Source of the DNA: an uncultured Planctomycetaceae bacterium
GTDB lineage: Bacteria > Planctomycetota > Phycisphaerae > SM23-33
Direction of reading: 5' to 3'
NCBI GenBank assembly: GCA_964557575.1
Contig: CAZLBC010000001.1
Location: 2,296-66,295, forward strand
DNA length: 64,000 nucleotides
Shown here: positions 1,658 to 63,820 of the stretch, piece after piece
Numbering within the stretch: the first letter of the stretch is position 1
How the letters are laid out: each line of letters opens with the position of its first letter
Program-made: the position numbers and the translations under genes
Notes under the pieces: generated by a model
The model's input: only the letters and a program-made list of their open reading frames with translations
Told to the model about the DNA's origin: nothing
Databases searched by the model: none

Positions 1658-1712
1658 GGTTGTCTCCTCCAGTGTTGTGGTCTTCGATCCTGTCGTCCGG
1701 AAGTAAATGTAA

Positions 1713-1760: not shown

Positions 1761-1923
1761 AAATGCTTGGCGGCCCCCGTGAAAACCCTTGTAACGAGAA
1801 GCGGGAGCATGGTAAAGTTCACATGTGACCACCCGCGTACTTGGCATCGAAGGTGAAAGCGCGGGGACCGGATTTGCGCCGTACCGGGGAATCATCTAAA
1901 CTGCGCCAAGGAGGTCAAGAGCG

Positions 1924-2430
1924 ATGCAACGCTACCCGGTCCCGACTGAAGACGACTTCGTCGTCGAACTGAACGCGGACAGAAAGCTTTTATGCGACGC
2001 GGACGTTCACCCCGTGCGCGATCAGGTGCAGTCCGTCATCGACGGCCGCCAGCCTCCGCTCGAATGGCTTACCCTGTACAACAGCGCGGACATCGTCGCG
2101 GCGTACCGACGGCTTCGCGACGCCGTGACGGTCTACCGTGAAACCAAGCGGAAGCTGGCGGGTTCCGGCTGTTGGGTCAGCGTGTCCAACGCGGCGACGG
2201 TGCGCACCACGCCGGTCGAAATCGCGCAACGCGTAACCGAATGCCGGTGGAACCTCGTCGCCGCCGTCGTCGAAGGGTTGTACGGCGACGCGAAGTACCG
2301 CGCCGCGTCGCTTTGGAACCTGCGGAAGACATTGCTGGTTCGCATGGCGCGCCGTCGGAAGATCAAACGGTACTCCCGCATGCGCAAGCACGAACTGGTG
2401 TACGCGCTGGTCGCCGACGGCTTCGGCTAG
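1924..2430 (+). CDS. hypothetical protein (Rho_N-like C-terminal segment)
   Basis: AAGGAGG lies 9 nt upstream of ATG. One of only three plus-strand genes; TAG stop, followed by a hairpin terminator. Confidence 0.6.
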   Translation: MQRYPVPTEDDFVVELNADRKLLCDADVHPVRDQVQSVIDGRQPPLEWLTLYNSADIVAAYRRLRDAVTVYRETKRKLAGSGCWVSVSNAATVRTTPVEIAQRVTECRWNLVAAVVEGLYGDAKYRAASLWNLRKTLLVRMARRRKIKRYSRMRKHELVYALVADGFG

Positions 2431-2460
2431 AAGGCGGACATCGAACGGTTCGAATAAGCG

Positions 2461-2493
2461 AAACCCCCGGTATTACCCGGGGGTTTCTTTTTT
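2461..2493. terminator. bidirectional rho-independent terminator
   Basis: AAACCCCCGG-TATTAC-CCGGGGGTTT followed by TCTTTTTT. Lies between convergent genes. Confidence 0.6.
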
Positions 2494-2526
2494 CCGCGCG
2501 TCACATGTGTCGGGGGGACTGAACGG

Positions 2527-7347: not shown

Positions 7348-7836
7348 TCAGTCCTCGGTTTTTCGATATACCTTTTCCTCGTGGACGTGACCGCCGCTGA
7401 ACGGTTCGGCGGACGGGTCATCCACGGGAAGCGGCGGAAGCATCGACCACCCGTTCGCTTCGTCCATCAGCCACTGGATGTCCCGGGAACACGCGTCACA
7501 CGCGCTGTCGGGGCATATCTTGTACAGGGTGTGAACGACAAACACGTTCGTGTCCGGCTCCCACTGGATGAAGCTCGGCTTCATGACGTAACTGTCGAGG
7601 GGAACCGCGATGTCCATGCGCGGGATGAACGGCATCTGAATCGTTTTTGAAAATCGGAATTGTTCTTCGATCGGGCGCGACGCGCCCTTCAAAATCTCCA
7701 TGTTCTCCCGGTACGTATCCTCGTCGAGATCGCCTGTTTCCCGGAGCTGTTCGAGTTGCGCCTTGTTCGACGCTTGCAACACCGGGTGCATTCCCCCGGT
7801 GTTGATAACGTGAAGCATGATTTGAACCGTGTGCAT
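7348..7836 (-). CDS. hypothetical Cys-rich protein
   Basis: ORF 7348..8208 trimmed to Met125 behind TAGGAGG. The conserved CCGATAAC..GGGTAGGAGG motif lies upstream. Its stop and the stop of the plus gene form the palindrome GAGGACTGATCAGTCCTC. Confidence 0.5.
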   Translation of the reverse strand: MHTVQIMLHVINTGGMHPVLQASNKAQLEQLRETGDLDEDTYRENMEILKGASRPIEEQFRFSKTIQMPFIPRMDIAVPLDSYVMKPSFIQWEPDTNVFVVHTLYKICPDSACDACSRDIQWLMDEANGWSMLPPLPVDDPSAEPFSGGHVHEEKVYRKTED

Positions 7837-13615: not shown

Positions 13616-16477
13616 CTAAAATGGGGCGACCGCAAGTTCCGATTCCGGCAGACGGGACAGGTCGTAAATGTTTGCCTTTTCCGCTTTCTTCGGCTTCGCG
13701 TCGGCGTGATCGCCGAGGTCGACCGGAGCTTCCGCCTTCCGGGAGTTCAACGCGGCGTCGATGTTGCGCGCCTTCTTCGCGATCGTCTCGGCGATGTACG
13801 CGTCCAGCGATTCGTCGACAACGATGTAGTAGCTGTTGACGCATTGCGTTTGCCCGATCCGATTGGCGCGGTCCTCGGCCTGATCGACATCGCCCGGCCG
13901 CCACGGCAGTTCGGCGAAAACGACCGACGTCGCTTCGGTCAGCGTGATTCCTTCCCGGCAGGCTTGGATCGATCCGACGAAGACGCGGATGCCGTCGTCG
14001 TTCTGGAAGCGGTCGATCGACTCCTGCTTGGCCGCGTCGTCCATGCCGCCCTGCACCTGCACGACGCCGTATTCGGAAAGCGCGGCGGCGACTTGGTCCT
14101 GCACGTCGCGGTGATGCGCGAAAACGATTACTTTCTTGTTGCCGGACAGGACCTGATCGGCGAACTCGGCCGCGTGCTTGATCTTCAGCGATCCGATTTC
14201 CGCGCGAAGTTTGCTCATTTCTTCGAACAGGGCCGGGCTTCCCCGCAATTCGGAGATCGCTTCTTCGGCGTTGCCTTCGTTGATGTCTTCGAGCGAAATC
14301 CCGGCGTCCGACAACAGCTTGCGCTGCCGGGCTAGAATCCGCGACGCGCCCTTGACGTCCGACGGGTCCAACCGGACGACAGTGCGAATCTTGCCGGGGA
14401 GTTCCGTCAGGACTTCGGACTTCATCCGGCGCAGCATGAACTTCGAACGCATGATGCGCTGCAATTCATCGAGATTCGTCGCGCCGTCGTCCACCCAGCC
14501 CCAGCGGCCTTGATGCGCGCCGCAGTAACGGCGGGTGTACTTCTTGTAACCGCGACCAAGGCCCTTGGGATCGAGGTGGCGCAGCATCGCGTACAATTCC
14601 TTCGGACGGTTCGGGCAGGGGGTTCCGGTCAGGAAGTAGTTGCGGTTCGCCCGGTGCGCGACGCCTTCGACCTCGCGCCTCTTGCCGGAATCCCAGTAGC
14701 CGAACGCGATTTTCGCGCGGGTGGCCGTCCGGGTGTTCTTTCCGTAGTGGGCTTCGTCCCACACGGCGACGTCCCACGAGTAGTTCATCAGCCCGGGGCG
14801 GACGTTCTTCTGCGACAGGTTCGACCATCCGCAGATAACGAAATTCGCACGGGGGTCAATCGTCTTGTTGCCGTTGACGACTTGGATGGTCCAATCGCCG
14901 ACGAGCCACTTCTCGGCTTCCCGCTTCCAGTTCAGCCGCACGCTGGGCGGACAAACGACCAGCACTTTGCGGACGGACTTGTCGGCGTTGACCGCGCCGA
15001 GGACCTGAATGGTGTTGTGTGTCAGGATCGCGTGTTCCGTAACGTACAATCGGTCGGCGGCGTCAACGGAAATACAAACGCTTTCCACGTCGCGGACGTA
15101 CTCGACAGACTTAACCGTGCGGACGGGGTGCGCGTGTTTTCCGGGGTTGTACTTAGAAACCTTGCGACGGATAGTAAAGGGAGCTATCGTTTTTGGCAGG
15201 CGAATACGCACGGGGTACTCCGTGGGTTTCCCCTCGGAAGATCGATCGTATTCGTGTACAGACGCGATGCCGCCCAAACACTCCACCAGTTCTTGAACAT
15301 CGCAGGCGAGCGACCGGCTCGTCGTGTGATACGTCAGCCGGTTCCGTTCGGCACTGCAGCCGCCATCGCAGTCCATGAGTCCCTGCAACAGAGCGATACG
15401 CTGCGCCGGGGAGGATTCAAGGTACTGACGTGGTATGCGTTTGTCCTTGCTTCCGACGTCCAACCCGAGTTCCCTGATGCTTCTGATCGTTTCAAGAATA
15501 ACCGTGCGCGACGCGTTATCATACGTTTGGATCGCCCCGATTTCCGCCCCTGCCTTGACGATGTTTTCAACTATCTCGTCCAAGTCGGCGGCGTTCACCG
15601 TCGCCACTGCGCTGCTGCCCCTGAGACCCCCGTTCGCTATCAGTACGCCGAGCACGTACGCGGGCACGGGCAGTTCGGCGGCAGCACCAAACCGGGCAGG
15701 TCCAGATAGCATAGGCAACTGCAGCTTCACACCTTCCAAGTTCAGCTTCGTCGCTCTACCCTTCTCGTGCGATAACTCGATAGTCGGCCGATCCAGAAGC
15801 TGCTGGGTAGTTAGCGTCAGGTCGCTCAAGGTTCGCCCCCCGCGCCAGTATTTGACAGTCCACAGGTGCTCTGGACCGGACTCTACGCGGGACTCGTCAC
15901 TGAAGGTAACACGGTAACTTGGCTTCACACCCTGCGGGAACACGCCGACGACGTTCACGGGATGTCCGTCGCTGCCAATGACACGATCGCCCACACGCAG
16001 TGAGCCTATCGTCGTCCACCCGGTCGGTGTCAGCACGTGTGTGTCCACAGGTTGCTGCTTTCCGAGGCCCATGTCGTCGGCCAACAGGACGTCGCTGCTG
16101 TTGACGAGGTACTCAATGCCCGCCTTCTGAAACGGCATGTAAGCGAGTCCCTCGGGGGCCGGGGCGTCGAAGTCGCCGGTCGTGGCGCGGGAGCCGTTGA
16201 TGCGGTCGAGGATCGGCTGCACGAGAGCTTTGACGGCGTCGTCGCAGTAGTCGATCAGCGGCACGCACTTGTCCGCTTGTTTCGCCCGGCAGAACCACGT
16301 GCAAGGGGTGCCGGTTTCAGAGCCGGACTTGTCGAACGCGAACCCGACGCCGCCGCGCTTCCTTGAAAGGGCCGAGACGTCGTTCCAGTACGCGTCGCGT
16401 TCGGCCGGGCTTCCCCGGAAGGCTCCGGACAGTTCCGCGACGATCAGGTTCTTGTCTTTGCTCAGGGTCAGTTTCAT
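13616..16477 (-). CDS. SNF2-family helicase, intein-containing
   Basis: GGAGGACACC RBS. The P-loop LLADDMGLGK-[349 aa]-TIQVLGAV reconstitutes DEMGLGKT. C-terminal helicase motifs are present (DEAHYGKN, LTGTPCPN). Confidence 0.8.
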   Translation of the reverse strand: MKLTLSKDKNLIVAELSGAFRGSPAERDAYWNDVSALSRKRGGVGFAFDKSGSETGTPCTWFCRAKQADKCVPLIDYCDDAVKALVQPILDRINGSRATTGDFDAPAPEGLAYMPFQKAGIEYLVNSSDVLLADDMGLGKQQPVDTHVLTPTGWTTIGSLRVGDRVIGSDGHPVNVVGVFPQGVKPSYRVTFSDESRVESGPEHLWTVKYWRGGRTLSDLTLTTQQLLDRPTIELSHEKGRATKLNLEGVKLQLPMLSGPARFGAAAELPVPAYVLGVLIANGGLRGSSAVATVNAADLDEIVENIVKAGAEIGAIQTYDNASRTVILETIRSIRELGLDVGSKDKRIPRQYLESSPAQRIALLQGLMDCDGGCSAERNRLTYHTTSRSLACDVQELVECLGGIASVHEYDRSSEGKPTEYPVRIRLPKTIAPFTIRRKVSKYNPGKHAHPVRTVKSVEYVRDVESVCISVDAADRLYVTEHAILTHNTIQVLGAVNADKSVRKVLVVCPPSVRLNWKREAEKWLVGDWTIQVVNGNKTIDPRANFVICGWSNLSQKNVRPGLMNYSWDVAVWDEAHYGKNTRTATRAKIAFGYWDSGKRREVEGVAHRANRNYFLTGTPCPNRPKELYAMLRHLDPKGLGRGYKKYTRRYCGAHQGRWGWVDDGATNLDELQRIMRSKFMLRRMKSEVLTELPGKIRTVVRLDPSDVKGASRILARQRKLLSDAGISLEDINEGNAEEAISELRGSPALFEEMSKLRAEIGSLKIKHAAEFADQVLSGNKKVIVFAHHRDVQDQVAAALSEYGVVQVQGGMDDAAKQESIDRFQNDDGIRVFVGSIQACREGITLTEATSVVFAELPWRPGDVDQAEDRANRIGQTQCVNSYYIVVDESLDAYIAETIAKKARNIDAALNSRKAEAPVDLGDHADAKPKKAEKANIYDLSRLPESELAVAPF
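15011..16057 (-). mobile_element. class-3-type intein with LAGLIDADG homing endonuclease in SNF2 P-loop
   Basis: Starts QQPVDTHVLTPTG (Gln at position 1, block A DT). Trp in block B (EHLW), Cys in block F (ESVCISVD) and Thr in block G (ILTHN|T) give the WCT signature. LAGLIDADG motifs YVLGVLIANGG and LLQGLMDCDGG. Confidence 0.7.
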
Positions 16478-33712: not shown

Positions 33713-35455
33713 TTATTCGGCGGTCTGCTCCGAGGTCTTGTCGGTCTTGTCGGACTTCTCTTTCTCTTTCTCCGCACGTTTGCGCTCTTCTTCGAGGGCG
33801 TCAAGCCGTTCGGCGAACTCCGCGCGGAACTTCACGCGTTCGTCGCCCTGCCGCAGGTCCGATTCAACCATTTTCATCAGGTCTCGCGGGAGCTGCAGTC
33901 CGACATTCCGAGACTCGACGCGCCATTCGACATTCCGTTGCTGACCCTCTTGGATCGCCTGCGCGACTTTCGGGTGCGTCATCACGTTTTCGGTCGCTTC
34001 CTCGGGAGACGCCCCGGTATTCCGAAGGTCGTGTAGCGCGTCGATGACGGTCTCGGTAAACGACTTCGTGAATATCGGAAACTCCGTAAGAACGACTTCC
34101 AACCACGCGGATTCATCGACCCCGAGCGTCGAACCGATCCGCGCGAGCGTCTCCATGGACCGCAGCCGCGCCTCGAACGTTTCCAGCCGGTATAGCTCTT
34201 CCAACGCGCTGGGCGGAACCATGCACAGGGTAAACGAATTTTCCTCGATGAGCGGATCGACGCCTCTGTACTTCAAATCCATCATCGCCAAACGGGCGAC
34301 CTCTGCAAGAAAAATCCTCTGGAGATTCGCGGCTTGCCGCGCGAACCTCGAATCCTGCTGAGACGGGCTTCGTTCGAAATTCGCTTGCCCCTCGTACCCG
34401 AAGTACCCCTTCGGCGCGCGCAACGCGCCGAACATGCGGTCGAGGAACATTTCGAGGTCCCGCATGTCGTCGACGCCCTTGGTTCCGGGAAGCACTTCAA
34501 CGTCCGTTTGATCCGCTTCGCGGAACCAGATGAAGAAATCCTCGTTTTCAGCCAGCAACGTGTACACGCTGGCGAAGTCGACGTTCGTCGGGTCGAAGTT
34601 ATAATCGCGCTTGACGTTCCGACGGTACTTCTCGATTTTCATTTCGGCGTCCACCGCGCCGAGACCGGTCACATCGATCTTGTGCTTGTAACGGTCGGGG
34701 TTTCGAAGCAACCGCATCAACGCGACCTTGTCCTCCATCATCTGAACCTGACGCCAGATGCGGCGGGCACCGAACAGCGTGGACGTTCCGTAAATTCGCC
34801 GCACGCTTCGCCCCAGTTTCCGGAAATGCAGGAAATCCCACGGCTTGGACAGAAGCTGAATGTTCTTCTGCTTGCTGACTTGCATGCCGTAGTTGTAGGT
34901 TTCCTCCGACTGGTACGGCGTGAAACCGCGAAGACGTCCGTACTCGTCGTGTACGCGGGAAATCGTCGCCGGGTGGTAGTTTATCAGCCGCTGAACGCCT
35001 GACTTCGGCTCCGCCAGAATGAACTCGAACTCGTCGCCGTACTTGGCCAACTGCCGCATGATCGGCTGCGCCAATTCGTCGGAAAGTCCGGTTTCGGCCA
35101 ACATGCTGTTGACCATGGACTCGACGTCCTTGTTGTGGCTCTCGCACCATACGATGACTCCGCGCCGGGCGTCGCGCTGCGTGGCGTCTTCGGTCAATTG
35201 TTCGAGGAACGCGAAGATCGTCGGGTCCAATTCCATCTCATCGTACAGGGCGTAGAGCAACGCCCGCTCCTCCTCGAACTGGAGGAGTTGGTTGTACATC
35301 ATCGACATCGGGTTCGGCACGACTCCGGTCGGCGTCTCGACGCCCATCGCGCCGGGGAACGGGAGCCGAACCGGTTGACGCGAAAGCGGCTTGTCGTAGC
35401 CGTAAAGCTGCAGAAGCGACGGTTCCGGAGAAAGAGAATATCTTTTGACAACCAC
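33713..35455 (-). CDS. portal protein (putative)
   Basis: 580-aa gene starting 3 nt after the terminase stop. GTG start after AGGGAGG. Call rests on size and position. Confidence 0.5.
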   Translation of the reverse strand: MVVKRYSLSPEPSLLQLYGYDKPLSRQPVRLPFPGAMGVETPTGVVPNPMSMMYNQLLQFEEERALLYALYDEMELDPTIFAFLEQLTEDATQRDARRGVIVWCESHNKDVESMVNSMLAETGLSDELAQPIMRQLAKYGDEFEFILAEPKSGVQRLINYHPATISRVHDEYGRLRGFTPYQSEETYNYGMQVSKQKNIQLLSKPWDFLHFRKLGRSVRRIYGTSTLFGARRIWRQVQMMEDKVALMRLLRNPDRYKHKIDVTGLGAVDAEMKIEKYRRNVKRDYNFDPTNVDFASVYTLLAENEDFFIWFREADQTDVEVLPGTKGVDDMRDLEMFLDRMFGALRAPKGYFGYEGQANFERSPSQQDSRFARQAANLQRIFLAEVARLAMMDLKYRGVDPLIEENSFTLCMVPPSALEELYRLETFEARLRSMETLARIGSTLGVDESAWLEVVLTEFPIFTKSFTETVIDALHDLRNTGASPEEATENVMTHPKVAQAIQEGQQRNVEWRVESRNVGLQLPRDLMKMVESDLRQGDERVKFRAEFAERLDALEEERKRAEKEKEKSDKTDKTSEQTAE

Positions 35456-35458
35456 GGC

Positions 35459-38400
35459 TTACGCCTCCCTGTTCTGAATCATTTCCCGGACCTTTTTAAG
35501 CGTCGACTCCTGATAGGTCATCGCGCCGTCGACGGTCGGAGTCAACAGTGTACCGACCTGCTCGTCCTGCATGCAATTCCAAACCGCGCCGCACACGGAG
35601 TCTGAAACATCCTTGCTGTTGTGCACAAAAACCCCGACCGAAAGAGCGAAATTATTCCACTCGTCGACTTCAAGGTCGTAGACGGGAACCGGCTCGTCCA
35701 GAGTAACCGGAATAACGTACCGGACTCGATGGTTGTCGCCGGTTTCATCAGCCAAGTACCGGTCCCGGCTTTCGTACCCGCCATTACGTGGAAACTGACG
35801 AGTTATCGGCATCAACCGGTCCCGCACGGGTACGAGGTCTTTGGCGCGCTTATACGAACCGTCTCGGAGCATCCATAGGTGTTCCGGAGTGCACCGAGCA
35901 ACCGCGCCGTTGTCGAGTATCACGTCAATCAGGTTCTTCGTGGTCTTCGTTTTACGCCCGCGCGCCCAACCGGCGACGATACTCCCGTCAGGCCGTGCGG
36001 AATAGACCCATCCTTCCCAACCGTCCAATTCCGAAATCCGGCGACACGTCCCGTCAAGCAGCGGGATTCGGGTGTCACCCGTAAAACAACCGCCCGGAGG
36101 GTGATCAATCTTGTCTTCGTCAGTCAACTCCAACGCGAGCAACTCGTCCTCAAGAACCTCGTGTTTCGGCCATGTAATCCGGTTCTCGTTCAGGATTGTT
36201 TTGAAAACATAATACTGTTCCGGACGCCTGTCGAGCGTCAGATACCCGGCTTCGATCCGGGACTTCTTCAGGTATTGAATTTCCCCCTGACCGGCCGGAG
36301 AGTCGTACGTTACTTTTCGGAGGACGAAGTTTTTCTCTTTCAGCCACAGGATGAAATCGCGGATTTTCTCCCAGTCCACTTCGTCCGTGTCAGGCGTGAT
36401 CTGAAGCGCGAAGTCGACCTCTATCGTCAACTCCGTACGCCGGTCGTAGTGTCCGGTGTCGGTACGGACCTGCCGCGAAACGGCTTTCGTCGGGTGGACC
36501 ATCGCGACGCCGACGGCGTCGCCGTTTCGCGAAATGTCAACATGGATGTACCGGGGGGAGTGCGGCATGCGTTTCGGGACGTCGCGGGAAGATCGAACCG
36601 TAAGGAACTCTTCGCGGAGAACGTAGTCCTGAATGCGGTCCGGGCGTTGAAGGTCGATCTTCATCGGACAGTCCCAGCGCGCTCCCATCCCGGCAACGAA
36701 CGGGTGCGGAAGAACGGCCTCCCCGTCGTTCTCCCACTCGACGGAAGCCTCTATAATCGGCTGGCCGCGAGGGAAGAACGGATTGATCGCTTCCGACGGT
36801 ATCCCGGCGATGTCGCGCAGGGAACCGATCGGGTCTTCGTTGAACGCGCGGAAATCCTCCACCGGGACGTCAATAGTGCGAACGCCGCGCGGAGGATTTC
36901 CTCCCTTCTTGATGCGAAACTGTCCGAATCCAAGGTTTTCCACGCCGTCGAGACAATGCGGCTTCACGAATTTGTTGCCGACAACAAATCGAAACGTCAA
37001 CCCCGATTCCCGCCGTCCGGATTTCGGCTGAAATTCCCACTGCGGGCCGCCGACGACGTGCACGTTCCGGTTGTTGGCAACCTCGCGCTTCCGAATTTCC
37101 AAGTACGAGTTTGACGCCTTCGTGGACGAAATGTGAATGATCATGCCGGACGTCGCGAACCGCGATTCCATGCGCCGGGAAGTTTGCTGGACGAGGCTGT
37201 GGACCTTCCCCTTCTCTTCCAACGTCTTGGCCTTCTTCTGCTTCTTCGTCTGCATGTGGAAGTTCATTTCGTCGATGGCCAGACAAAACAGGTTGTGTCC
37301 AAGAACGTGAAAAGCAGCGGAACCGATCATAAACTTAATATTCTTGGGGAAATGCAGTTCGCTGTACTGCTCCTTGTACCAGAACTTCTCCTTGAAATAC
37401 GGCGACTGGTCCAGAAGACCGAGAAGCGTCGACATTCCGACATCCGTCAATCTCAACGTCGCGTTGTAAATACCGAAGACGATCGGAGACCCCTTGGACA
37501 ACCCGTGGTATCCGGCGGGATCGCGCAGGCAGGACAACTGATAAAGTTTGAAGATCATCATGACCATGGAATTGAACGTGTTGTGACTCATGAATCCGTC
37601 GGAAACGTAACTCGGGTCGTCCTCCACCGACAAGTCGTAGCAGTGCGCGTGATCGTCGTCCACGGTTTCGACCGTATCAAATAGCAGGTGTCCTCTGGCG
37701 ATAGCGCACAGAACGTCAGGAAGCGTTCCCGCCGCATCCAAGACCTCGTTCAAGAGCCGTCTGGTTGCACGTTGTTTAACGAGGCGTCTCAGGAGCCGGG
37801 ACGGTCCCTTGCGCTTTTCGTACCCGTCTGGAGCCTCTCCGCGTTTGTGCCGGGGCTGCATCTTTCGAAGTTCAGCGACGCATGTCTCAGGAATCCTGAA
37901 CGAAAACGAGTGATCACAGTTTCGGTTCCACCGGGAAGCCCGTTCGATCAAAGCCGCTTGTTTCCGGTCGTGGTAGTGACCAATCTGCGCGGCGAACTTT
38001 GCTTGAGAGTCCGTACCGACAACCCGAACGGTATACGCCCGCCCTGTAACGTAACGAGTGCCTGCGTCAGTATACGCGGCTTCCTTTGACGTAACCGAAC
38101 AGTACATTCCGAGCGACGTCAAAAGAACCCGAACCTGACGCGCTAATTGCTCAGACGTTGTCGTGAGGGAACAGTCCGAATCGCCGCTGTACCCGTCGCC
38201 CGAGAACAAACCCCTGAGATACGCGCAAACTCCCGCTCGGCTGCTTCTGAAAACAACTGGAGGAATCGTGCGGGTCCCGCTTTTTTGACCTTCGCCTTCT
38301 CGAAGAACCGAATCCGGTCTTGGTTTAATCGTGAACTCTTTTGAAAACTCAGACCGTGCATCTCGGCTTCGTTCGTGAACCCACTCGATTCCAAGTTCTT

Positions 38401-39172
38401 CCCGAACGAAATCAAAAAGGTTCAAAACATAATCGTATTCCTCTTCGTGTACGCTTACTCGTGCATACCTGACGTCTGGTGTCCAACAACCTTCAGCCGT
38501 TTCCCAACCGAGGGCTTCCATCGCTCCTTCCGAAAAACCTGAATTTGTCGGGAAAGCGTACGGGTATTCCAGAACACAATCGCCTTCGACCAAGTCTTCC
38601 AACGCCACCCATTCGACGTCAAGCCCTCGAAGAACACGAATACGGTGGTTCGGTCGGCCTTCAAATACGTGTCCGTGTTTTGTAGTCACTTTCTTAGTTG
38701 AAGTCAGTCCTTCGTTGTGATACTCGGAAATCGGACAGTACCCTGACTCAGTCAGAACCTCGACGTTCATCCTGTTATCGACAATATCTTCGATTGGAAT
38801 CATCCCGCGAGACGTCGAGATCAGCGTACCTCTTCGGCTACACTTCCCGATTCCAATTCCGCCATCGATGATCACTTCGTTGATCTGATTCCTCGGGTCG
38901 AACGTCGTCAACAATTCCTTTTGCCATCGCGGCCAGATGTCCACGCCGCCGAGGTAGTACGGATTCGTGATAAACTCGTCGATTCCGACCGGAGGCTCGT
39001 CGTAGTCCATCTGCGTAATAAAATCCCGGGACAGCGACTTGCCGCTGTTCCGCAGCGATTCTTCAATTCCGCGAATCGCCCACGTCTTTTCACTGTCCGA
39101 CAACGAATCGAAAAACCGAAGGACTTCCGAGTCGAGCTTCGCCAGCGCAGCGCGAATTTGGTCGACGTTCAT
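35459..39172 (-). CDS. terL: terminase large subunit containing two inteins
   Basis: Walker A GGIGIGK-[intein]-TFNSM reconstitutes GIGKT. ATPase and nuclease regions are present. Position is upstream of the portal gene. Confidence 0.8.
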   Translation of the reverse strand: MNVDQIRAALAKLDSEVLRFFDSLSDSEKTWAIRGIEESLRNSGKSLSRDFITQMDYDEPPVGIDEFITNPYYLGGVDIWPRWQKELLTTFDPRNQINEVIIDGGIGIGKCSRRGTLISTSRGMIPIEDIVDNRMNVEVLTESGYCPISEYHNEGLTSTKKVTTKHGHVFEGRPNHRIRVLRGLDVEWVALEDLVEGDCVLEYPYAFPTNSGFSEGAMEALGWETAEGCWTPDVRYARVSVHEEEYDYVLNLFDFVREELGIEWVHERSRDARSEFSKEFTIKPRPDSVLREGEGQKSGTRTIPPVVFRSSRAGVCAYLRGLFSGDGYSGDSDCSLTTTSEQLARQVRVLLTSLGMYCSVTSKEAAYTDAGTRYVTGRAYTVRVVGTDSQAKFAAQIGHYHDRKQAALIERASRWNRNCDHSFSFRIPETCVAELRKMQPRHKRGEAPDGYEKRKGPSRLLRRLVKQRATRRLLNEVLDAAGTLPDVLCAIARGHLLFDTVETVDDDHAHCYDLSVEDDPSYVSDGFMSHNTFNSMVMMIFKLYQLSCLRDPAGYHGLSKGSPIVFGIYNATLRLTDVGMSTLLGLLDQSPYFKEKFWYKEQYSELHFPKNIKFMIGSAAFHVLGHNLFCLAIDEMNFHMQTKKQKKAKTLEEKGKVHSLVQQTSRRMESRFATSGMIIHISSTKASNSYLEIRKREVANNRNVHVVGGPQWEFQPKSGRRESGLTFRFVVGNKFVKPHCLDGVENLGFGQFRIKKGGNPPRGVRTIDVPVEDFRAFNEDPIGSLRDIAGIPSEAINPFFPRGQPIIEASVEWENDGEAVLPHPFVAGMGARWDCPMKIDLQRPDRIQDYVLREEFLTVRSSRDVPKRMPHSPRYIHVDISRNGDAVGVAMVHPTKAVSRQVRTDTGHYDRRTELTIEVDFALQITPDTDEVDWEKIRDFILWLKEKNFVLRKVTYDSPAGQGEIQYLKKSRIEAGYLTLDRRPEQYYVFKTILNENRITWPKHEVLEDELLALELTDEDKIDHPPGGCFTGDTRIPLLDGTCRRISELDGWEGWVYSARPDGSIVAGWARGRKTKTTKNLIDVILDNGAVARCTPEHLWMLRDGSYKRAKDLVPVRDRLMPITRQFPRNGGYESRDRYLADETGDNHRVRYVIPVTLDEPVPVYDLEVDEWNNFALSVGVFVHNSKDVSDSVCGAVWNCMQDEQVGTLLTPTVDGAMTYQESTLKKVREMIQNREA
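35618..36088 (-). mobile_element. intein 2 (mini-intein) in terminase C-terminal domain
   Basis: CFTGDTRIPLLDG start, block B CTPEHLWM, ends VGVFVHN|S. 157 aa with no endonuclease domain. Confidence 0.7.
37580..38842 (-). mobile_element. intein 1 (LAGLIDADG-type) in terminase P-loop
   Basis: CSRRGTLIST start, block B TKHGHVF, LAGLIDADG-like AMEALGWETAEG and AYLRGLFSGDGY, ends SHN|T. Confidence 0.7.
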
Positions 39173-39173
39173 G

Positions 39174-40241
39174 TCACTCCCCCAGTTGCTTCCTGCGGAT
39201 AATCTTCTTGAGGTGGCGCGGAACCGGCCATTCGAGAAGCATCGAAACGACTTCGTTTATTTCTTGCCAAGTCGCGTCGGGGAACCGCCGCTTCAACCAC
39301 TTCGTATCCGCGCCCAGCGCAGCGAAAGCCCACACCTTGTCCAACCTCGGAACACCTGTCGGAGAACCGACGACGTCCAAAAGCGTGGCGGGGGTGTGCG
39401 ACCGGCAAACGGCGTTCATCCGAAGACTGTGGTGGATCACGTTCGACACCAAGTTGTTCCGTGTCCTCCATTTCTGGACGCGCTGACATCCGCAACCCAT
39501 GACTCGCGCGATTTCGCCGTCCGACCATCCGTCAGCCCACATCTTACGGAAAAACTTTTCGTCCATCCCGAATTTACGCTGCTTCCCGGTCGGAACGCCT
39601 AATTTTCGAAGCCACCGCTTCAACGTGGACTTCGCGACTCCGACGCGTTCCGCGAGTTCCGCGTCGGACATCATCATTCCGCGATCCAAAACCAGTTTCC
39701 TTACCTGCTGCCCCACGGAAACGAACAAAAAGTCCCGGGCCTGCTGCGGGTCGCGGTTCATCCCGAGTTCGGACCGGAGTTTGACAACCGTCGTCTTGGC
39801 GCGTCCCACGGCTTCCGCCAGTTCCCTGTTGCTCAAATGCGGGTTTTCCGTCAGCACCCGTTGTATCTTGTTCCGCAGACGGGTTCGTGCGGCTTTCGAC
39901 CGTTTCGTCGCGACGCCGAGCTTGCGCCGTATGTACGACATCATATCACGCGACACGCCGAGAACCTCGGCTGCTGTTTTACATTTTGCTTTCGGGTTGT
40001 CCGCCATAAACCGCTTGTACCGCTCGCACAATTCGTCCATCTGCGCCGCCGTTCGTTTCGCCGGGCGTCCGACGCGAATGCGAATGACGGATACGTCGGA
40101 CTGGCTGATCATCAAGGCTTCGGCTATTTCAGGGTTCGGGGCGTCCGGGTGTTCATCCAAATAGTCAACCACCGCCTGCCGAAGTCGTTTCGTTTCCGCT
40201 TTCGTGCGACGTTTCTTCTTCTTCTTCTTCTTGCGCGCCAT
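39174..40241 (-). CDS. DNA-binding protein with five tandem HTH repeats (putative terminase small subunit)
   Basis: AGGAGG RBS. N-terminal poly-Lys from a (AAG)n run. Repeated HTH-like units ending ...RKLG or ...ELG. Located directly upstream of terL. Confidence 0.45.
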   Translation of the reverse strand: MARKKKKKKKRRTKAETKRLRQAVVDYLDEHPDAPNPEIAEALMISQSDVSVIRIRVGRPAKRTAAQMDELCERYKRFMADNPKAKCKTAAEVLGVSRDMMSYIRRKLGVATKRSKAARTRLRNKIQRVLTENPHLSNRELAEAVGRAKTTVVKLRSELGMNRDPQQARDFLFVSVGQQVRKLVLDRGMMMSDAELAERVGVAKSTLKRWLRKLGVPTGKQRKFGMDEKFFRKMWADGWSDGEIARVMGCGCQRVQKWRTRNNLVSNVIHHSLRMNAVCRSHTPATLLDVVGSPTGVPRLDKVWAFAALGADTKWLKRRFPDATWQEINEVVSMLLEWPVPRHLKKIIRRKQLGE

Positions 40242-40959
40242 CTTCCGGGGCCTCCTGCACTGGAACGTCAATGACGGGTCCGTCCGGCCCGGCGGAAACC
40301 AAATCGGACCTACCGGCTCCTTCCAAAGCCTTCCAGAACTCGCGCAACCGGTCCCGGGATCGCGGGGATTCCGGAGGTTCGGGCGCGTCGGGATCGTGTT
40401 CGAATATGTTGATAACCGTGTTTGTCTGGTTGAAAAGCTCGTCGACTCCCTTGTTCCGGTCGACGGACATTTTCTTGACGTAGTCCAACGCTTCGCTCAT
40501 CGACTTTTCCATGATCTGGTAGACCTTGGCGAGATTACTGTCGGACATGTCGGCCAAGCGTGCGGGGTCGAGGAGGAGTTCGCGGATGTCTTCCAGTTGT
40601 TCGTACAGCGTGCCGACGGTTTGGATGCGTCGAACGGCAAACAGGTTCAGCGCGACCCGAAATCGCGCGTCGTGGTCCTTCAACAGGTTGTGAATGACCT
40701 GCTGCGCGATGTTGTCGATCTGGTCGTCGGACAGAATATTGCGAACGACGGTGTCCGTAATGGCGGGCATCGAGTCAGGATCGGACAAGTCAAGGAGATT
40801 CAGGTCTTCGCTCGGCGACACCGCACCGTACTTTTCCTGAAACTCCTCCATCGACATCCCGTGCTTCTGCCGGAGATGCGTGTTCGTGATCCGCTTCATC
40901 GACTGCCCGCATATCGGACACTCAATCAGCCTTCGCGCTTTCTTCTTCTTCTTTGCCAT
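40165..40959 (-). CDS. zinc-finger protein (CPICGQ...HLRQKH)
   Basis: Overlaps both neighbours. Both the 3' end and the start are uncertain. Confidence 0.35.
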   Translation of the reverse strand: MAKKKKKARRLIECPICGQSMKRITNTHLRQKHGMSMEEFQEKYGAVSPSEDLNLLDLSDPDSMPAITDTVVRNILSDDQIDNIAQQVIHNLLKDHDARFRVALNLFAVRRIQTVGTLYEQLEDIRELLLDPARLADMSDSNLAKVYQIMEKSMSEALDYVKKMSVDRNKGVDELFNQTNTVINIFEHDPDAPEPPESPRSRDRLREFWKALEGAGRSDLVSAGPDGPVIDVPVQEAPEDGAQEEEEEETSHESGNETTSAGGG

Positions 40960-50597: not shown

Positions 50598-50678
50598 CAG
50601 CGGCGACGGGAGTCGAACCCGCATGTGTCCAGTTACCCTTTCTCCAGTTTAGAAGACTGAGGGGATACACCGCTGATC
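50598..50678 (-). tRNA. tRNA-like gene, anticodon undetermined
   Basis: Good acceptor (AGCGGUG/CGCCGCU) and T-arm (GCGGG-UUCGACU-CCCGU), but the central cloverleaf could not be resolved by eye. Confidence 0.35.
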
Positions 50679-53349: not shown

Positions 53350-54291
53350 TCAAGCCTGCGACAGTTTCAGCCAGATCGCGACCATGATTTCGTCGACGAC
53401 TTCGTCAACGGTGCGATCCTTGGTTTCAACAACGCAGTCGGCTTCCGCCGGTTCTTCGTACGGATCGTCGATCCCGGTGAATCCCTTGATCTCACCGGCG
53501 CGGGCTTTCGCGTACAAGCCCTTGACGTCCCGCGCTTCGCACTCTTCGAGACTGGTGGCGACGTGGACCATGAAGAACCGCTTGTCGCCGATCAGGTCTC
53601 TCGCGGACTGCCGGGCTTCCGCATACGGCGAGATCGCCGCCGTGATCGCGATTCCTCCGACGTCGGCGACCGACTTCGCCACGAAGGAAAGCCTTCGAAT
53701 GTTTTCGTCCCGGTCCTCTTTCGAGAATCCGAGTCCCCGGTTCAAGTTCGTCCGGACCTCGTCGCCGTCCAGAACCTTCACCCGGTGTCCGAGTTCGTTC
53801 AACCGGCTTTCAAGAGCCACAGCGATAGTGCTCTTGCCAGAACCTGACAGCCCGGTAAACCAGATGACAAGGCCATTGCCTGCGTCACCACCGGTTGCGA
53901 GGACTTCCGCCGTCGCCATTGGAACCTTTTCCCGCCACGACTCGTCGCCTTCCGCCATGAGCGTTCGGACTTGGGTCGCCGAGATTCCGCCGATCTCCGG
54001 CGGCACGACGTCCTGTAAGTCACGAACTTCATAGCCGACCTTTCGTCCGACGACCACCGCCGCGATGTCCGGGATGGCCATGACGCGAACACAACCGGTT
54101 TTGATTTCGTCGGAGTACACGGCGCGGATCATCGCGATCCGCTCTCCCAGCGTGTACGGGTCTCCGTCGTTGACCGGCGTGTCCCGCACGGCGATCAAGA
54201 CGTTCTCGTCGCGATCCAGAGCTTGCTGGATCAGCCATTTGTGGCCATTGTGGAACGGCTGCCACCGGCCGATGTAAAGCGCGTACTTCAT
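53350..54291 (-). CDS. cysC: bifunctional HxGH-nucleotidyltransferase-like / adenylylsulfate (APS) kinase
   Basis: N-terminal [12 protein letters not shown] ((H/T)xGH nucleotidyltransferase). C-terminal [13 protein letters not shown]...LDGDEVR...AISPY matches the APS kinase core. GAAGGGAG RBS. Confidence 0.75.
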
Positions 54292-57486: not shown

Positions 57487-57533
57487 TCCGGACTCCTTCC
57501 TGAAAAAATGGTGGATCGTGCTAAAAAATTTTT

Positions 57534-57640
57534 GACCCTGACAGGATTCGAACCTGCACTGCATTAGTTTCTTGCACCACTTCACAGCCCGGCTCTTGGT
57601 GCAACACACCGGGGCGTCTGCCATTTCCGCCACAGGATCA
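57534..57640 (-). other. tRNA-like element (about 107 nt) with unresolved fold
   Basis: 3' end GCAGG-UUCGAAU-CCUGU-CAGGGUC-A pairs with GAUCCUG 107 nt upstream. D-loop AAAUGGCAGA resembles the Leu-type family. Confidence 0.25.
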
Positions 57641-57648
57641 AATTCTAA

Positions 57649-57670
57649 ACACACACACACACACACACAC
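57649..57670. repeat. (AC)11 dinucleotide microsatellite
   Basis: ACACACACACACACACACACAC in the non-coding region between the tRNA-like element and the tmRNA. Confidence 0.8.
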
Positions 57671-57852: not shown

Positions 57853-58315
57853 TGGTGGAGGCGAGGGGAATCGAACCCCTGTGCTGAATCTCTTCCGTAT
57901 CAGCGTCCCCATGTTCACCCTAGTCCTGCCTCACTCCAAGGGTACGGTGAGGGGCTTGTTGTGACACGTTTCCAGTGCCGCACACGGGTCGTGCGCAAAT
58001 GAGGAGTGCGTCTTTCCGCGTCGTCCCTCGTATGTACCTCGAACGCCGGGACTTACTTGTCAGCCGTCTCTCCGCACAGGGTTGTCCCCGTGGCCCCCAT
58101 GTTTCGCTCGCCGCTACTTAGGGTGCGCTGTCCGTTCTTGTAGGTGTCCCCATGACGTTACCAGAACAATCTCACGTCATGGAGTGCGGCTAGGCCGCGT
58201 TTGCTAAAGCAGGTTCAGCAATTAGTTGTTGAGCGCAGTTTTTAACGTGGACTGACGTTCATACCACGACATGCAGCCGATACTTCCAACGACCAGTCGA
58301 AACCAAGTCGCCCCC
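57853..58315 (-). ncRNA. ssrA: tmRNA (SsrA-like)
   Basis: 5' end GGGGGCGACUUGGUUUCGACUGG pairs with 3' end AGGGG-UUCGAUU-CCCCU-CGCCUCC-A-CCA. The UUCGAC 5' motif matches bacterial tmRNAs. Internal candidate tag reading frame ...AEPALANAA-UAG. No protein-coding ORF over 800 nt. Confidence 0.55.
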
Positions 58316-59386: not shown

Positions 59387-59444
59387 AAAAAAGCCCTCCG
59401 TTTCGCAACCAAGTATGCGACGGAGGGCCTCACGTGTCAAATAA

Positions 59445-59515
59445 TGCGTCGGACGGGGATCGAACCCGTTACCACGTTTTTAGAGAACGCCGCCTATCCA
59501 TTCGGCTTCCGACGC
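59445..59515 (-). tRNA. tRNA with anticodon CUA (amber-suppressor-like)
   Basis: Acceptor GCGUCGG/CCGACGC, A73. Anticodon stem GCGUU/AACGU with loop CUCUAAA (U33, anticodon CUA, purine 37). T-arm ACGGG-UUCGAUC-CCCGU. Confidence 0.5.
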
Positions 59516-59523
59516 AATTCGAC

Positions 59524-60216
59524 TTAAACGTCCGAGATGCGGCCGGTCTTGGGATCGACGTCGACGACAAACGGGGAAACGGAAGGTCCGTACCGGTTCA
59601 CCGGGACCGACACCTCGGCTCGATTGTGCATCCGAAGGTCTTCCGGACGGTGAATCTCGATCACCGCTGTCGCCATCGCCGCCGTCGCCCACGGGGCTTC
59701 CCCGGGACCTTCCCTCGAAGACTCCTTTGACGATCCGCTGTCGAAATCCCCGTTGCGTCGCAACTGGGTACTGGTGAACACCGGACACCCCAGCGCGGCC
59801 CCGACGCGCTGCAGCGCGCAAAAAGCCAAAGACGTGCTGATACGCGGAATCGGGTCCACGATCAGCATGTCGGTCTGGAAAGCCGCACGCGAGACCACGC
59901 CCAACACGTCGAAGAAAACCAAATCGGGCGACAACGTCCGGTACGTGTCGGAAAACAACGATCCGTCAACCTCGTTCGGGAGAAAGTCGCTGTACTTGAG
60001 CATGACCTCGCTCGGCGACAATTCGAAGTCGGAGGTCATGTGGATCACGTTGAACCCGTTCAACGCGGCGTGCGCTCCGATGGAGCAAAGCATCGAAGTC
60101 TTCCCGTCCTTCGGGCGCGCCGCGACCACGACCACGTCACCCGCGTGAAACCCTTTGTCCGGGTGACTCGCGCGAACGGCGTTGTTGATTTTTGAAAAGG
60201 GAGTTTCAATCGACAT
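59524..60216 (-). CDS. DnaB-like / RecA-fold ATPase domain protein
   Basis: VVVAARPKDGKTS Walker A and LIVDPIP Walker B-like. Only the C-terminal helicase domain is present. Confidence 0.5.
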   Translation of the reverse strand: MSIETPFSKINNAVRASHPDKGFHAGDVVVVAARPKDGKTSMLCSIGAHAALNGFNVIHMTSDFELSPSEVMLKYSDFLPNEVDGSLFSDTYRTLSPDLVFFDVLGVVSRAAFQTDMLIVDPIPRISTSLAFCALQRVGAALGCPVFTSTQLRRNGDFDSGSSKESSREGPGEAPWATAAMATAVIEIHRPEDLRMHNRAEVSVPVNRYGPSVSPFVVDVDPKTGRISDV

Positions 60217-60286
60217 GATTCGGTCCTCGATTAGAAAAAGGTGAAAAGAAAAGCCGAACCCTGTCCAAAGGTTCGGCCGGTTTCAG

Positions 60287-61463: not shown

Positions 61464-62564
61464 TTATTGCGCGCCTTTTCTACGATTACAATCCGCGCAA
61501 AGCATACGTCCATTATTCGTATCCGTCTTGCCGCCTTGAGACCATGGAGTAATATGGTCGGCGTGCATTTCCGCCAGATCGCATTCTTTATCACATTGCG
61601 CGCATTGGCCGCTTTGTTTCTCATACATCGTGCGTCGTTGCTTCTTATCGAAAGCTCGAATGTTGAGATGTTTTACTTCTCCCGTGAGAACATACGCATA
61701 AATCCCGCGTTTATTCGTCACGTCTTCATCAGCCATCAACACGGAAATCCGATCTTCCAACTCTTCAGCATCAAGCGTGTCATTTTTGTGAGCTTCGTAC
61801 ATTTCATTCCACGGCAAGCCCTTCATCTCTTTGCGGTATTCCGTAAATACCGTTTGGACCCAGCGTATCACTTTTTTGAAGTAGTTCCATAGAGAATTTG
61901 CATTTTGCCGGTGCTGATGGGTCGCCATGTAAGATCGAATGTGCATGTCGTTCGGCTGATTCTCTTTCGTCGCCCACTTGATGGCCAATTCAAGCAATTC
62001 TTGCCGAATCGGACTGCCTTTGACGTAGGCCCCTCCAAGTTGATAAGCCGCACAGCTTCTCCGAGAAAACCGTCTCTTCGCGTCGGACAACCATGGACCA
62101 GTATATACAGCGTTGCGTAGTTCTTGTTCAGTTAATGGTTCTCCGGCAATGTTAACGGTCTTGAACCATTCCAATAACTCGGTATGACTTCCCGAGCACT
62201 GATAAATCATGAGTTCGTAGTCAAGAATGCGGGACTGGGTCTCTTCACCCAAGTTGGCAAAGTTCATTGCATTGACTTGGAACATGCCGGAAACGTATTG
62301 GCAGATTGAAATAGTGCGTTGCTGTCCGTCGAGGATTTCGAAAGTGTCATCATCATGTTTGGCCCAGTACATGATATTAAGGGGCAAGCCTTTGAGCACG
62401 GAGTCAATAACCGCATTACGTTGGGCGGCGTCATAAACGAACTCTCGTTGATATGGCGGTCGGATGTCTAACAGGCCGTTGTAGCCTTTGACTCCTTCTT
62501 CCGCGTTATCTTCGTACCCGGCCACAACTTCGCGAATCGGGATATTGTGCAGTTCAACTCTCAT
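61464..62564 (-). CDS. DUF262 + HNH (GmrSD-like type IV restriction endonuclease-like)
   Basis: N-terminal ILDGQQRT (DGQQR, DUF262/ParB-like NTPase). C-terminal HADHITPWSQGG...N...CADCNRRKG (HNH/DUF1524). Low GC compared with its surroundings. Confidence 0.7.
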   Translation of the reverse strand: MRVELHNIPIREVVAGYEDNAEEGVKGYNGLLDIRPPYQREFVYDAAQRNAVIDSVLKGLPLNIMYWAKHDDDTFEILDGQQRTISICQYVSGMFQVNAMNFANLGEETQSRILDYELMIYQCSGSHTELLEWFKTVNIAGEPLTEQELRNAVYTGPWLSDAKRRFSRRSCAAYQLGGAYVKGSPIRQELLELAIKWATKENQPNDMHIRSYMATHQHRQNANSLWNYFKKVIRWVQTVFTEYRKEMKGLPWNEMYEAHKNDTLDAEELEDRISVLMADEDVTNKRGIYAYVLTGEVKHLNIRAFDKKQRRTMYEKQSGQCAQCDKECDLAEMHADHITPWSQGGKTDTNNGRMLCADCNRRKGAQ

Positions 62565-62628
62565 GAGGTTATTCCTTTGTTGTCATTTGTTTCTGTACAG
62601 TTCTGTCATGTATGCGTAGGAATAATGA

Positions 62629-62826
62629 TTATACATCTTCCTCTGTAATATCGCCTATCTTGATTAAGACGTATTGGTAAAACCTACTGTCATTACTAGG
62701 ACTTAAAGAAATACGTCCTATTGGCACCTTAAAACAGGGGTCATTTTCTGTGGTTTTGATCTCTATCGTATTACCTGTTTGCCTACAAAAGTAAGTATTA
62801 ATACGGGTTCTTTTCTTGTCTTTCAT
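62629..62826 (-). CDS. small hypothetical protein (island)
   Basis: AT-rich 65-aa ORF between the MTase and the GmrSD-like gene. Confidence 0.4.
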   Translation of the reverse strand: MKDKKRTRINTYFCRQTGNTIEIKTTENDPCFKVPIGRISLSPSNDSRFYQYVLIKIGDITEEDV

Positions 62827-62836
62827 GTCTTGTTTC

Positions 62837-63820
62837 CTATTCCTCTGTTGTTATTGGATGAAGGTTGCGAATGAGTACCCTGACATACTTAGTCTTCCCA
62901 TTAACTGATCCTTCTTTATCTTTGATTAGTCCATGAGGTTTGCTCGGTATTGCTCGTGACTTTTTGAGGTCATTGCAATTTAGTATCTCAAATTGTCTTG
63001 GGCAATATTTATCAAGGAACGTAATTGGCACGCCCATCACTCCGGGATAGTCCTCGGGAATATCTTTTACGCTATCGACGTTAATGGCGTCGTAGTTATC
63101 ATAGGCGAGATGTTTGTCGGGGTCGTAAAGCGCGATCAGGTCAATTGGTTGGTTGCGTTTCTTGTGGTTCATGTTGGTAAACCAACATGTATTGCCTAAT
63201 TTGACAAACTTCTGTCCCCCATCCTCATAACATCCACGTTTTCCTATTGGAGTATTATCGGGTACTCGATAAGAGCGACTTCCGCCTACTACCCCCATCC
63301 ATACCTTGTTCTCCCTGATAAGCGGAAACATCTCCTTATATGTAAGCGCATTCATATTGCCGATGATCAAGAACTTCTTTTTATACTGGACAAGTTGTGC
63401 GACGTATTCACGAAACAGGGAGAATGGCGGGTTGGTACAAACTATGTCGGCTTCCTTTAGCAACTCCACGCACTCCGGGCTGCGAAAATCCCCGTCACCC
63501 GCCAAAGGGGTAATCTCGATTTCATCTATATCAGGAACGCCGTTGCCGTTTTGGTCGCCTTCATATACGAACTTCATGGCGCGACCTGTTAGTCCGCCGA
63601 TGTATGAAGTCGCGATAAGCTTCTTTAGCTTCAGATGCTCGAACTGCTTGGCGAAGTAATCCCAGAACTTTGATTCCAACGGGTCGTCGCAATTCAGGTA
63701 GACGACTTTGTTCTTGAAATGTCGCCAGTAATGGTATGCCTCGGCTTCGATATCCTCAAGGCGGGTATAGAACTCGTCGTTCTTCGTCGTCTTCGCTTTA
63801 TGCAGATTGCGATTTGCCAT
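62837..63820 (-). CDS. DNA methyltransferase (N6-adenine/N4-cytosine, NPPF motif)
   Basis: AAGGAG RBS. CTNPPFS motif IV and an FxGxG-like IATSYIGG. AT-rich relative to the rest of the window. Confidence 0.7.
   Translation of the reverse strand: MANRNLHKAKTTKNDEFYTRLEDIEAEAYHYWRHFKNKVVYLNCDDPLESKFWDYFAKQFEHLKLKKLIATSYIGGLTGRAMKFVYEGDQNGNGVPDIDEIEITPLAGDGDFRSPECVELLKEADIVCTNPPFSLFREYVAQLVQYKKKFLIIGNMNALTYKEMFPLIRENKVWMGVVGGSRSYRVPDNTPIGKRGCYEDGGQKFVKLGNTCWFTNMNHKKRNQPIDLIALYDPDKHLAYDNYDAINVDSVKDIPEDYPGVMGVPITFLDKYCPRQFEILNCNDLKKSRAIPSKPHGLIKDKEGSVNGKTKYVRVLIRNLHPITTEE

Follow-up and report, generated by a model that had tools for sequence, protein, structure and literature searches.

A tRNA gene of 71 nt with the anticodon CUA, which would read UAG, lies at 59515..59445 on the minus strand of the window (the whole stretch of DNA that was analysed, 64,000 nucleotides in length). 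Sequence comparisons suggest that it is probably a functional and selectively maintained amber suppressor, carried by a large, tRNA-rich phage whose genome otherwise follows the standard code. By the same comparisons the gene appears to be an independent sequence type within a known class, the suppressor tRNAs of standard-code, tRNA-rich large phages. The usual account of phage suppressor tRNAs is that they read recoded genomes, and the phage described here does not fit it; the CUA tRNA is conserved in a lineage of high G+C and standard code that ends about one in eight of its genes with TAG.

Structure of the tRNA gene

ARAGORN called a tRNA with the anticodon cta at 59444..59516 on the minus strand. 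A local scan with the Rfam model RF00005 matched 59445..59515 with 52.8 bits (gathering score 29, E 1.1e-10) over model positions 1-71, that is, the full cloverleaf. The whole-window Rfam scan at the gathering threshold had missed the gene, presumably because of its speed filters, and only the local scan caught it. The RNA reads GCGUCGG-AA-GCCG-AAUGGAU-AGGC-G-GCGUU-CUCUAAA-AACGU-GGUA-ACGGG-UUCGAUC-CCCGU-CCGACGC-A, with the following parts.

Acceptor stem: GCGUCGG/CCGACGC, 7 bp
D stem: G10-C25, C11-G24 and C12-G23, plus a G13.A22 mismatch
Anticodon stem: GCGUU/AACGU, 5 bp, with G27.U43
Anticodon loop: CUCUAAA, 7 nt (C32 U33 C34 U35 A36 A37 A38)
T arm: ACGGG-UUCGAUC-CCCGU, perfect
Discriminator: A73

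Of the nucleotides that tRNAs conserve for tertiary contacts (U8, G18-G19 and T54-Psi55-C56), G18-G19 and the T-loop UUCGA are present, and position 8 is A. The variable loop has 4 nt, CCA is not encoded and the 3′ trailer reads UUAUUUGACA. A preliminary description of this DNA had claimed a clean cloverleaf with a 7-bp acceptor, a 3-bp D stem, the anticodon stem GCGUU/AACGU and a perfect T arm, all of which agree with ARAGORN, Rfam and the sequence itself; both programs also place CUA at positions 34-36 of the loop CUCUAAA, with U33 and A37, as that description had it. It had allowed that an alternative fold might shift the anticodon, and inspection found no other register with a 7-nt loop and a different anticodon; the minimum free energy fold agrees and retains the anticodon stem-loop. 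The run A36-A37-A38 is the recognition motif of MiaA, the tRNA isopentenyltransferase that modifies A37, and the loop CUCUAAA is identical to that of the E. coli amber suppressors supF and su7. The MiaA motif, in a loop like that of efficient laboratory suppressors, fits a decoding role.

The phage and the locus

The sequence that hosts the tRNA is that of a large phage with a G+C content of about 58%. The phage is new; a BLAST search with the CUA tRNA and with its locus against 50,697 phage records gave no match, and the portal protein is at most 28% identical to that of any deposited phage. By exact matches of its proteins, the locus was traced to an NCBI contig of 198,081 bp and also to Logan contigs of run SRR7048227. 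About 76 kb of the probable 198,081-bp contig was inspected, and the remaining 60% or so is where most structural and lysis genes should be. ARAGORN called 23 tRNAs between 47.5 kb and the window end, and the array comprises at least 23 tRNA genes plus a transfer-messenger RNA (tmRNA). The features that bear on what follows are listed here.

33713..35455: portal protein, T4-type (Pfam)
35459..39172, minus strand: terminase large subunit with two inteins (Pfam)
57853..58315, minus strand: phage tmRNA, one-piece (Rfam, 88.9 bits)
59387..59431, minus strand: hairpin followed by a run of six U, 14 nt past the tRNA 3′ end
59516..59523, minus strand: 8-nt spacer, from the TAA of the upstream gene to tRNA position 1
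59524..60216, minus strand: upstream gene, 230 aa (weak Pfam match to DnaB_C, 28 bits, in the P-loop region of DnaB-like helicases; PHROG 19)

The upstream gene is called identically in a public assembly and has a terminator-like site upstream of it (60278..60252). The 8-nt spacer, we infer, would be the 5′ leader removed by RNase P. Past the tRNA, the hairpin folds with -26.9 kcal/mol (z = -5.4, a stability reached by none of 200 shuffles), and we read it, together with its U6 run, as a predicted intrinsic terminator; the ATG of a DUF5661 gene stands at 59386, directly past the hairpin. The 230-aa gene and the tRNA are probably co-transcribed, and from this arrangement the latter looks like a transcribed and processed tRNA that ends a small operon.

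Two further details of this region were seen. A promoter-like TTGACA-17-CATACT lies inside the terminator hairpin (59387..59440, minus strand), its TTGACA box just past the CUA tRNA being retained in both of the relatives described below, and the GGAGGG Shine-Dalgarno sequence of the DUF5661 gene is the 3′ arm of the same hairpin.

Conservation in related phages

Two relatives, L006 (Logan SRR10018917) and L009 (Logan SRR17165157), were reached through homologues of two flanking proteins. L006 has the CUA tRNA at the same position, beside a protein that is 74% identical. The two tRNAs share 68 of 71 nucleotides (95.8%; the differences are C32U, C60U and C66A), and the L006 copy has a G7.A66 mismatch; for comparison, third codon positions of the flanking genes are 63-85% identical and a nearby tRNA-Val 97.3%. 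The spacer before the tRNA has the same length of 8 nt in L006, and the trailer and hairpin are 86% identical. L009 is far more distant, with shared or neighbouring proteins 35-56% identical. It carries 40 tRNAs and a tmRNA in 20 kb, its CUA tRNA is again at the same position, directly upstream of a DUF5661-like gene, and this copy is canonical but for a T stem that is weakened and an anticodon stem of 6 bp. Position 8, where U is near-universal in tRNAs, is A in the window and in L006 and U in L009. The CUA tRNA scores below most of its neighbours on the Rfam model (52.8 bits in the window, 43.5 bits in L009), the other Rfam-detected tRNAs of the window having 47-73 bits.

When the three sequences are aligned, pairing holds in 94% of stem cells, and 5 of the 17 pairs have changed on both sides (4-69, 6-67, 26-42, 29-39 and 30-38). 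This is reached by one of 500 shuffles, and sliding the 3′ partners by 1-3 columns gives a pairing of 29-49%. The loop YUCUAAA is invariant throughout. Since CUA remained fixed while the stems diverged in L006 and L009, the anticodon appears to be under selection and to be no recent accident, for which three sequences provide modest evidence.

Further afield, exact-pattern scans of IMG/VR and JGI metagenomes for the CUA tRNA (with any anticodon) and for the tag region of the tmRNA returned nothing, and the 230-aa upstream protein had no relatives in IMG/VR. The DUF5661 neighbour is widespread in phages (546 or more loci), and none of the 79 DUF5661 loci that were fetched carried a CUA tRNA, so the adjacency is specific to the lineage of the window. 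Homologues of a second array protein, ARPP-1, led to one further relative with a tRNA array, in which no CUA tRNA is visible within its 11.5 kb.

The array of L009 holds two other unusual elements. At 4117..4191 on the plus strand is a tRNA with the anticodon UUA (Rfam 57.5 bits), which would read UAA and has A33 in place of U33 as well as an acceptor-stem mismatch; its counterpart region in the window phage falls beyond the sequence inspected. At 7639..7719, also on the plus strand, 81 nt match positions 2130-2211 of bacterial 23S rRNA (40.6 bits, E 1e-9, below the gathering score).

Parentage and likely charging

Pairwise and multiple alignments with more than 70 tRNAs of these phages gave a weak preference for tRNA-Arg(YCU) as the parent, with Met, Gly and Lys close; the nearest sequences were tRNA-Arg(CCU/UCU), Met and Gly, at identities of 0.62-0.77. 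In L009, the CUA tRNA and tRNA-Arg(UCU) agree at 14 of 15 positions of the acceptor stem and discriminator, the unusual G1.U72 among them. Over the same positions the window copy is only slightly closer to Arg than to Met or Lys. Descent from the only copy of a Trp, Gln, Lys or Glu tRNA through one anticodon change was considered and rejected, because L009 keeps ordinary tRNAs for Trp (CCA), Lys (CUU, UUU), Gln (CUG, UUG) and Glu (UUC); the CUA tRNA is thus an extra gene and not a mutated sole copy of one of those.

In E. coli, class I CUA tRNAs with A73 and U35 are typically charged with lysine, whereas A20, where present, favours arginine and leads to arginine plus lysine; GlnRS accepts many CUA tRNAs. 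All three copies from the window, L006 and L009 retain GGA in the D loop (A20), A73 and U35. Candidates for the inserted amino acid would therefore be Lys, Arg and Gln, among which the sequence makes no choice.

The resemblance to tRNA-Arg(YCU) also lends itself to another explanation, namely that the gene makes a non-decoding, tRNA-like RNA, a diverged and uncharged duplicate of a phage tRNA-Arg(YCU) that might be kept, for instance, as a decoy against a host nuclease that targets tRNAs, as a signal for processing of the operon or as a regulator. The shared acceptor stem in L009 would agree with this, as would the oddities of the tRNA body (A8, the mismatches at 7-66 and 13-22, the weak T stem in L009) and the occurrence of further aberrant tRNA-like elements in the same array. 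However, the strictly conserved part of the molecule is the anticodon loop, with U33 and A36-A38, as decoding requires; G18-G19 and the UUCGA T loop are intact, and unrelated phages have independently gained CUA tRNAs with the same loop. We consider a non-decoding RNA unlikely.

Genetic code of the phage

A codon-usage caller trained on long ORFs identified 69 genes in the window, which end in TGA (41), TAA (19) or TAG (9, about 13%). TAG makes up 9% of coding-strand stop triplets, which, set against 13% of terminators, means that it is not depleted as a terminator. The gene at 1924..2430 does end in TAG, as the preliminary description had pointed out, and a public assembly calls the same coordinates. 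The in-frame tails past the TAG stops run for 5-53 codons to the next stop and score as non-coding. Four of these stops could be checked in homologues, which have TAA or TGA in three cases and TAG in one, and conservation of the post-TAG tails was found for none of the four. Moreover, tblastn alignments of the window proteins with four relatives (L001, L002, L006 and L009) contained no stop codons, and a scan for TAGs with coding-like flanks on both sides returned only two, both of them antisense to real genes. The terminase and portal genes are free of in-frame TAG in the window and likewise in L001 and L002.

The stretches that adjoin the window, 8 kb beyond its start and 3.5 kb beyond its end, have the same standard-code look; from about 8 kb outside to just inside the window start, 1 of 14 genes ends in TAG. 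In L009, 4 of the 26 genes called end in TAG. Among 48 window proteins scanned with Pfam, nearly all of those longer than about 150 aa, there was no release factor, RF2 or aminoacyl-tRNA synthetase.

A recoded genome served by the CUA tRNA is therefore unsupported by the 76 kb examined. The preliminary description had proposed a tally of TAG against TGA and TAA and a search for in-frame TAG codons, and in about 76 kb the outcome is that TAG is an ordinary stop with no in-frame occurrence. Its idea of a phage amber suppressor thus survives in part, for the CUA tRNA is real, is carried by a phage and has kept its anticodon in relatives, whereas about 76 kb of phage sequence gives no sign that the phage's genes need it.

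It could still be argued that the tRNA is a device for a change of code, with in-frame TAG in capsid, tail and lysis genes of the unseen 60% or so, where the suppressor would enable late translation, a role suggested for it in TAG-recoded gut phages. Surveys tie suppressor tRNAs strongly to recoded phages, in which recoding falls mainly on genes for structure and lysis (Borges et al., bioRxiv 10.1101/2021.08.26.457843), and the inspected part is about 76 kb of the probable 198,081-bp contig. Against this stand the normal use of TAG as a terminator in the window and in L009, the clean terminase large subunit and portal genes here and in L001 and L002 (both typically recoded in published phages of this kind), the lack of an RF2 or synthetase gene among the 48 scanned proteins, and a G+C content of 58%, low G+C being the starting point of the proposed route to recoding. 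On balance a code change is distinctly unlikely.

Proposed mode of action

If the gene is, as we favour, a suppressor in a standard-code phage, the tRNA would be transcribed together with the 230-aa gene, with transcription ending at the hairpin-U6 terminator. RNase P would trim its 5′ end, and host enzymes would trim the 3′ end and add CCA, as none is encoded. A host aminoacyl-tRNA synthetase tolerant of CUA would then charge it, most likely with Lys or Arg in view of A73, U35, A20 and an acceptor stem like that of phage tRNA-Arg(YCU), and alternatively with Gln. The charged tRNA would compete with release factor 1 at UAG in the infected cell. As about 13% of genes end in TAG and no in-frame TAG is seen, the expected effect is partial read-through rather than a change of code, which for window genes would add C-terminal tails of 5 to 53 residues. 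Selection could act through a gene of the host, through one particular gene of the phage or through the tag of the tmRNA.

Some considerations speak against a suppressor. An efficient one would lengthen some 13% of the proteins that the phage itself encodes, at an apparent cost. In addition, each copy has its oddities (A8 in the window and L006, G7.A66 in L006, and the weakened T stem and 6-bp anticodon stem in L009), and the Rfam scores of the window and L009 copies are below those of most neighbouring tRNAs.

Comparison with known suppressor tRNAs

Laboratory suppressors of E. coli (supF, supE, su7 and CUA tRNAs derived from tRNA-Arg or tRNA-Lys) share with the window tRNA the loop CUCUAAA, U33, A37-A38, a class I body, A73 and U35. 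They arose by single anticodon mutations of known tRNAs; the window tRNA, in contrast, is conserved as a gene in its own right and has no clear parent, tRNA-Arg(YCU) being weakly the closest.

Phages recoded at TAG or TGA are established carriers of suppressor tRNAs (bioRxiv 10.1101/2021.08.26.457843; PMC13037316), and some standard-code relatives of recoded phages carry them as well (Borges et al., bioRxiv 10.1101/2021.08.26.457843). With the TAG-recoded (code 15) phages, such as crAss-like, Lak and other gut phages, the window phage has in common a phage-encoded CUA tRNA, presumably charged by a host synthetase. In their genomes TAG occurs within the reading frames of terminase, structural and lysis genes and rarely terminates a gene, the G+C is low, and some encode an RF2. 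None of these features is seen in the roughly 76 kb of the window phage.

A much closer parallel is offered by two phages that also appear to use the standard code. Two CUA tRNAs are reported from the standard-code genome of the Xanthomonas jumbo phage XacN1, where in-silico read-through of all 18 amber stops revealed no target (PMC5852040). The Sinorhizobium phage Phosso has one CUA tRNA, annotated as tRNA-Pyl(cta). As in the window, the CUA tRNAs of both lie within a large tRNA array in a big phage whose genome is annotated, or reads, as standard code, and both have the anticodon loop CUCUAAA. However, the window tRNA is 62-63% identical to theirs, which is the background level, whereas the tRNAs of XacN1 and Phosso agree with each other at 76-79% and resemble tRNA-Lys. 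They also have an encoded CCA and U8, and the window copy has neither. The phage lineage is different too, the portal being about 22% identical to that of Phosso. Identity at background level implies that the suppressor was acquired independently in the window lineage, and its convergence with the other two in the anticodon loop points to decoding as the property under selection.

With the present lineage added to XacN1 and Phosso, there are three sets of standard-code phages with a CUA tRNA and no target found. This repeated pattern suggests a second use of nonsense suppression during infection. Conservation at a fixed locus in spite of TAG stops sharpens the question of what that use is, and the lineage provides a fixed genomic position, three diverged copies and an adjoining tmRNA with which ideas can be tested. 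The unusual tRNA body could also interest engineers of orthogonal suppressors.

The adjoining tmRNA

The phage tmRNA lies 1.1 kb downstream of the CUA tRNA on the same strand, with no other canonical tRNA closer to it on the upstream side. ARAGORN missed the tmRNA of the window and called its homologues in L006 and L009. The window tmRNA encodes the tag AEPALANAA with the stop UAG; in the window, L006 and L009 alike the tag (AEPALANAA or AEPALAPAA) ends in UAG. In the window this UAG sits in a GCGGC-CUA-GCCGC hairpin. Read-through of the tag would add X-PHSMT or a similar extension, burying the C-terminal Ala-Ala.

A tmRNA also accompanies the suppressors of XacN1 (AP018399), where a permuted and unannotated one was found about 1 kb downstream of the two tRNA-Sup genes on the same strand (Rfam 123 and 108 bits; tag ANANTFDYALAA, stop UAA). 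The same adjacency beside an unrelated suppressor hints at convergence. The 2.5-kb unannotated gap that follows the tRNA-Sup genes of XacN1 contains this tmRNA and a GOLLD RNA (227 bits), on the plus strand (37177..37621, 38570..38983). A possible further case, the Caulobacter phage CcrColossus, was discarded, as only the 3′ end of the tmRNA matched and ARAGORN found neither a CUA tRNA nor a tmRNA in the 40 kb fetched.

As a special case of the suppressor reading, the CUA tRNA and the tmRNA might form a functional pair. By one route, suppression at UAG would make read-through or non-stop ribosomes that the phage tmRNA rescues; by the other, the UAG of the tag itself would be read through and the Ala-Ala degradation signal buried under a short extension. 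The close, same-strand placement of the two genes favours a pair, as do the UAG stop of the tag in all three phages with this CUA tRNA and the tmRNA about 1 kb downstream in XacN1, an unrelated lineage with an unrelated type of suppressor. Suppressor tRNAs increase trans-translation, raising tmRNA tagging via read-through ribosomes, according to the passage of PMC3985003 that cites Ueda et al. (2002). However, the tag of XacN1 ends in UAA, and Phosso has a CUA tRNA and no tmRNA within 1.9 kb downstream. The G of the tag's UAG is paired in the GCGGC/GCCGC hairpin, so RNA structure alone could favour TAG, and the read-through peptides of the tag are not conserved. Only two independent lineages are involved, for which the chance of random adjacency is about 0.01, a figure estimated after the pattern had been seen. 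We find such a pair very unlikely, and the notion that UAG-ended tags are general partners of CUA tRNAs was rejected, given the UAA of XacN1 and the partial base-pairing of the UAG here.

Were the pair real, suppressor and tmRNA would be a two-part module that reprograms translation termination in the infected cell, which is likewise a long shot. The CUA tRNA would read through UAGs, including that of the tag, the tmRNA would handle the resulting ribosomes, and the rescued proteins would carry an extended tag and so escape recognition for degradation. The tmRNA adjacency is at present a testable idea, a hypothesis only.

Lastly, a pyrrolysine tRNA, the label that ARAGORN prints for every CUA tRNA, is refuted on structure and almost certainly wrong, since tRNA-Pyl is marked by a 6-bp anticodon stem, a 3-nt variable loop, a small D loop without GG and the lack of T-Psi-C, and the window tRNA has no hallmark of it, with two nucleotides (AA, positions 8-9) rather than one between acceptor and D stems, G18-G19 in the D loop, a UUCGA T loop, a 5-bp anticodon stem and a 4-nt variable loop, and no pyl genes in Pfam scans of window proteins.

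Other features of the array and the phage

Two aberrant tRNA-like elements were seen in the array, both on the minus strand. The first (57533..57639, 107 nt, 31.9 bits on the Rfam tRNA model) has good acceptor, D and T arms, but its 'anticodon loop' measures 16 nt and its variable region carries 28 inserted nt. It lies just downstream of a (GT)12 run (about 57647..57670) and overlaps the 5′ part of an ORF initially taken for a Cpn10 gene. The second (50598..50675) lacks a normal D arm, and the models of tRNA and tRNA-Sec give it 30.5 and 32.2 bits, respectively; its loop CUUCUAA gives the anticodon UCU (Arg). A canonical tRNA-Arg(UCU) is otherwise missing from the window, and L009 has one.

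Large proteins of the window that remained uncharacterised were searched against PDB and PHROG, and these searches were uninformative. Inteins or homing-endonuclease domains occur in three essential genes on the minus strand, the terminase large subunit listed above and the following two.

2527..6159, minus strand: ribonucleotide reductase with an intein (HNH)
13616..16477, minus strand: SNF2 helicase (LAGLIDADG)

The tRNA array also contains protein-coding genes. A fusion of a cytidylyltransferase-like domain and APS kinase lies at 53350..54291 (minus strand), and an ARPP-1/ARPP-2 protein at 1636..2667 of the contig that extends past the window end (L005). The best cellular matches of both are to Omnitrophota and Planctomycetota, with 42-54% identity. 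A weak Ros/MucR domain was found at 40165..40959; as clues to the host, this domain and the affinities of the CysC (APS-kinase) and ARPP-1 proteins to Planctomycetota and Omnitrophota contradict each other. Finally, an EcoRI-type adenine methyltransferase (418 bits) and a GmrSD_N-HNH nuclease gene lie within the array at 61464..63820 (minus strand), where the G+C content falls to 46%, which suggests a recent insertion.
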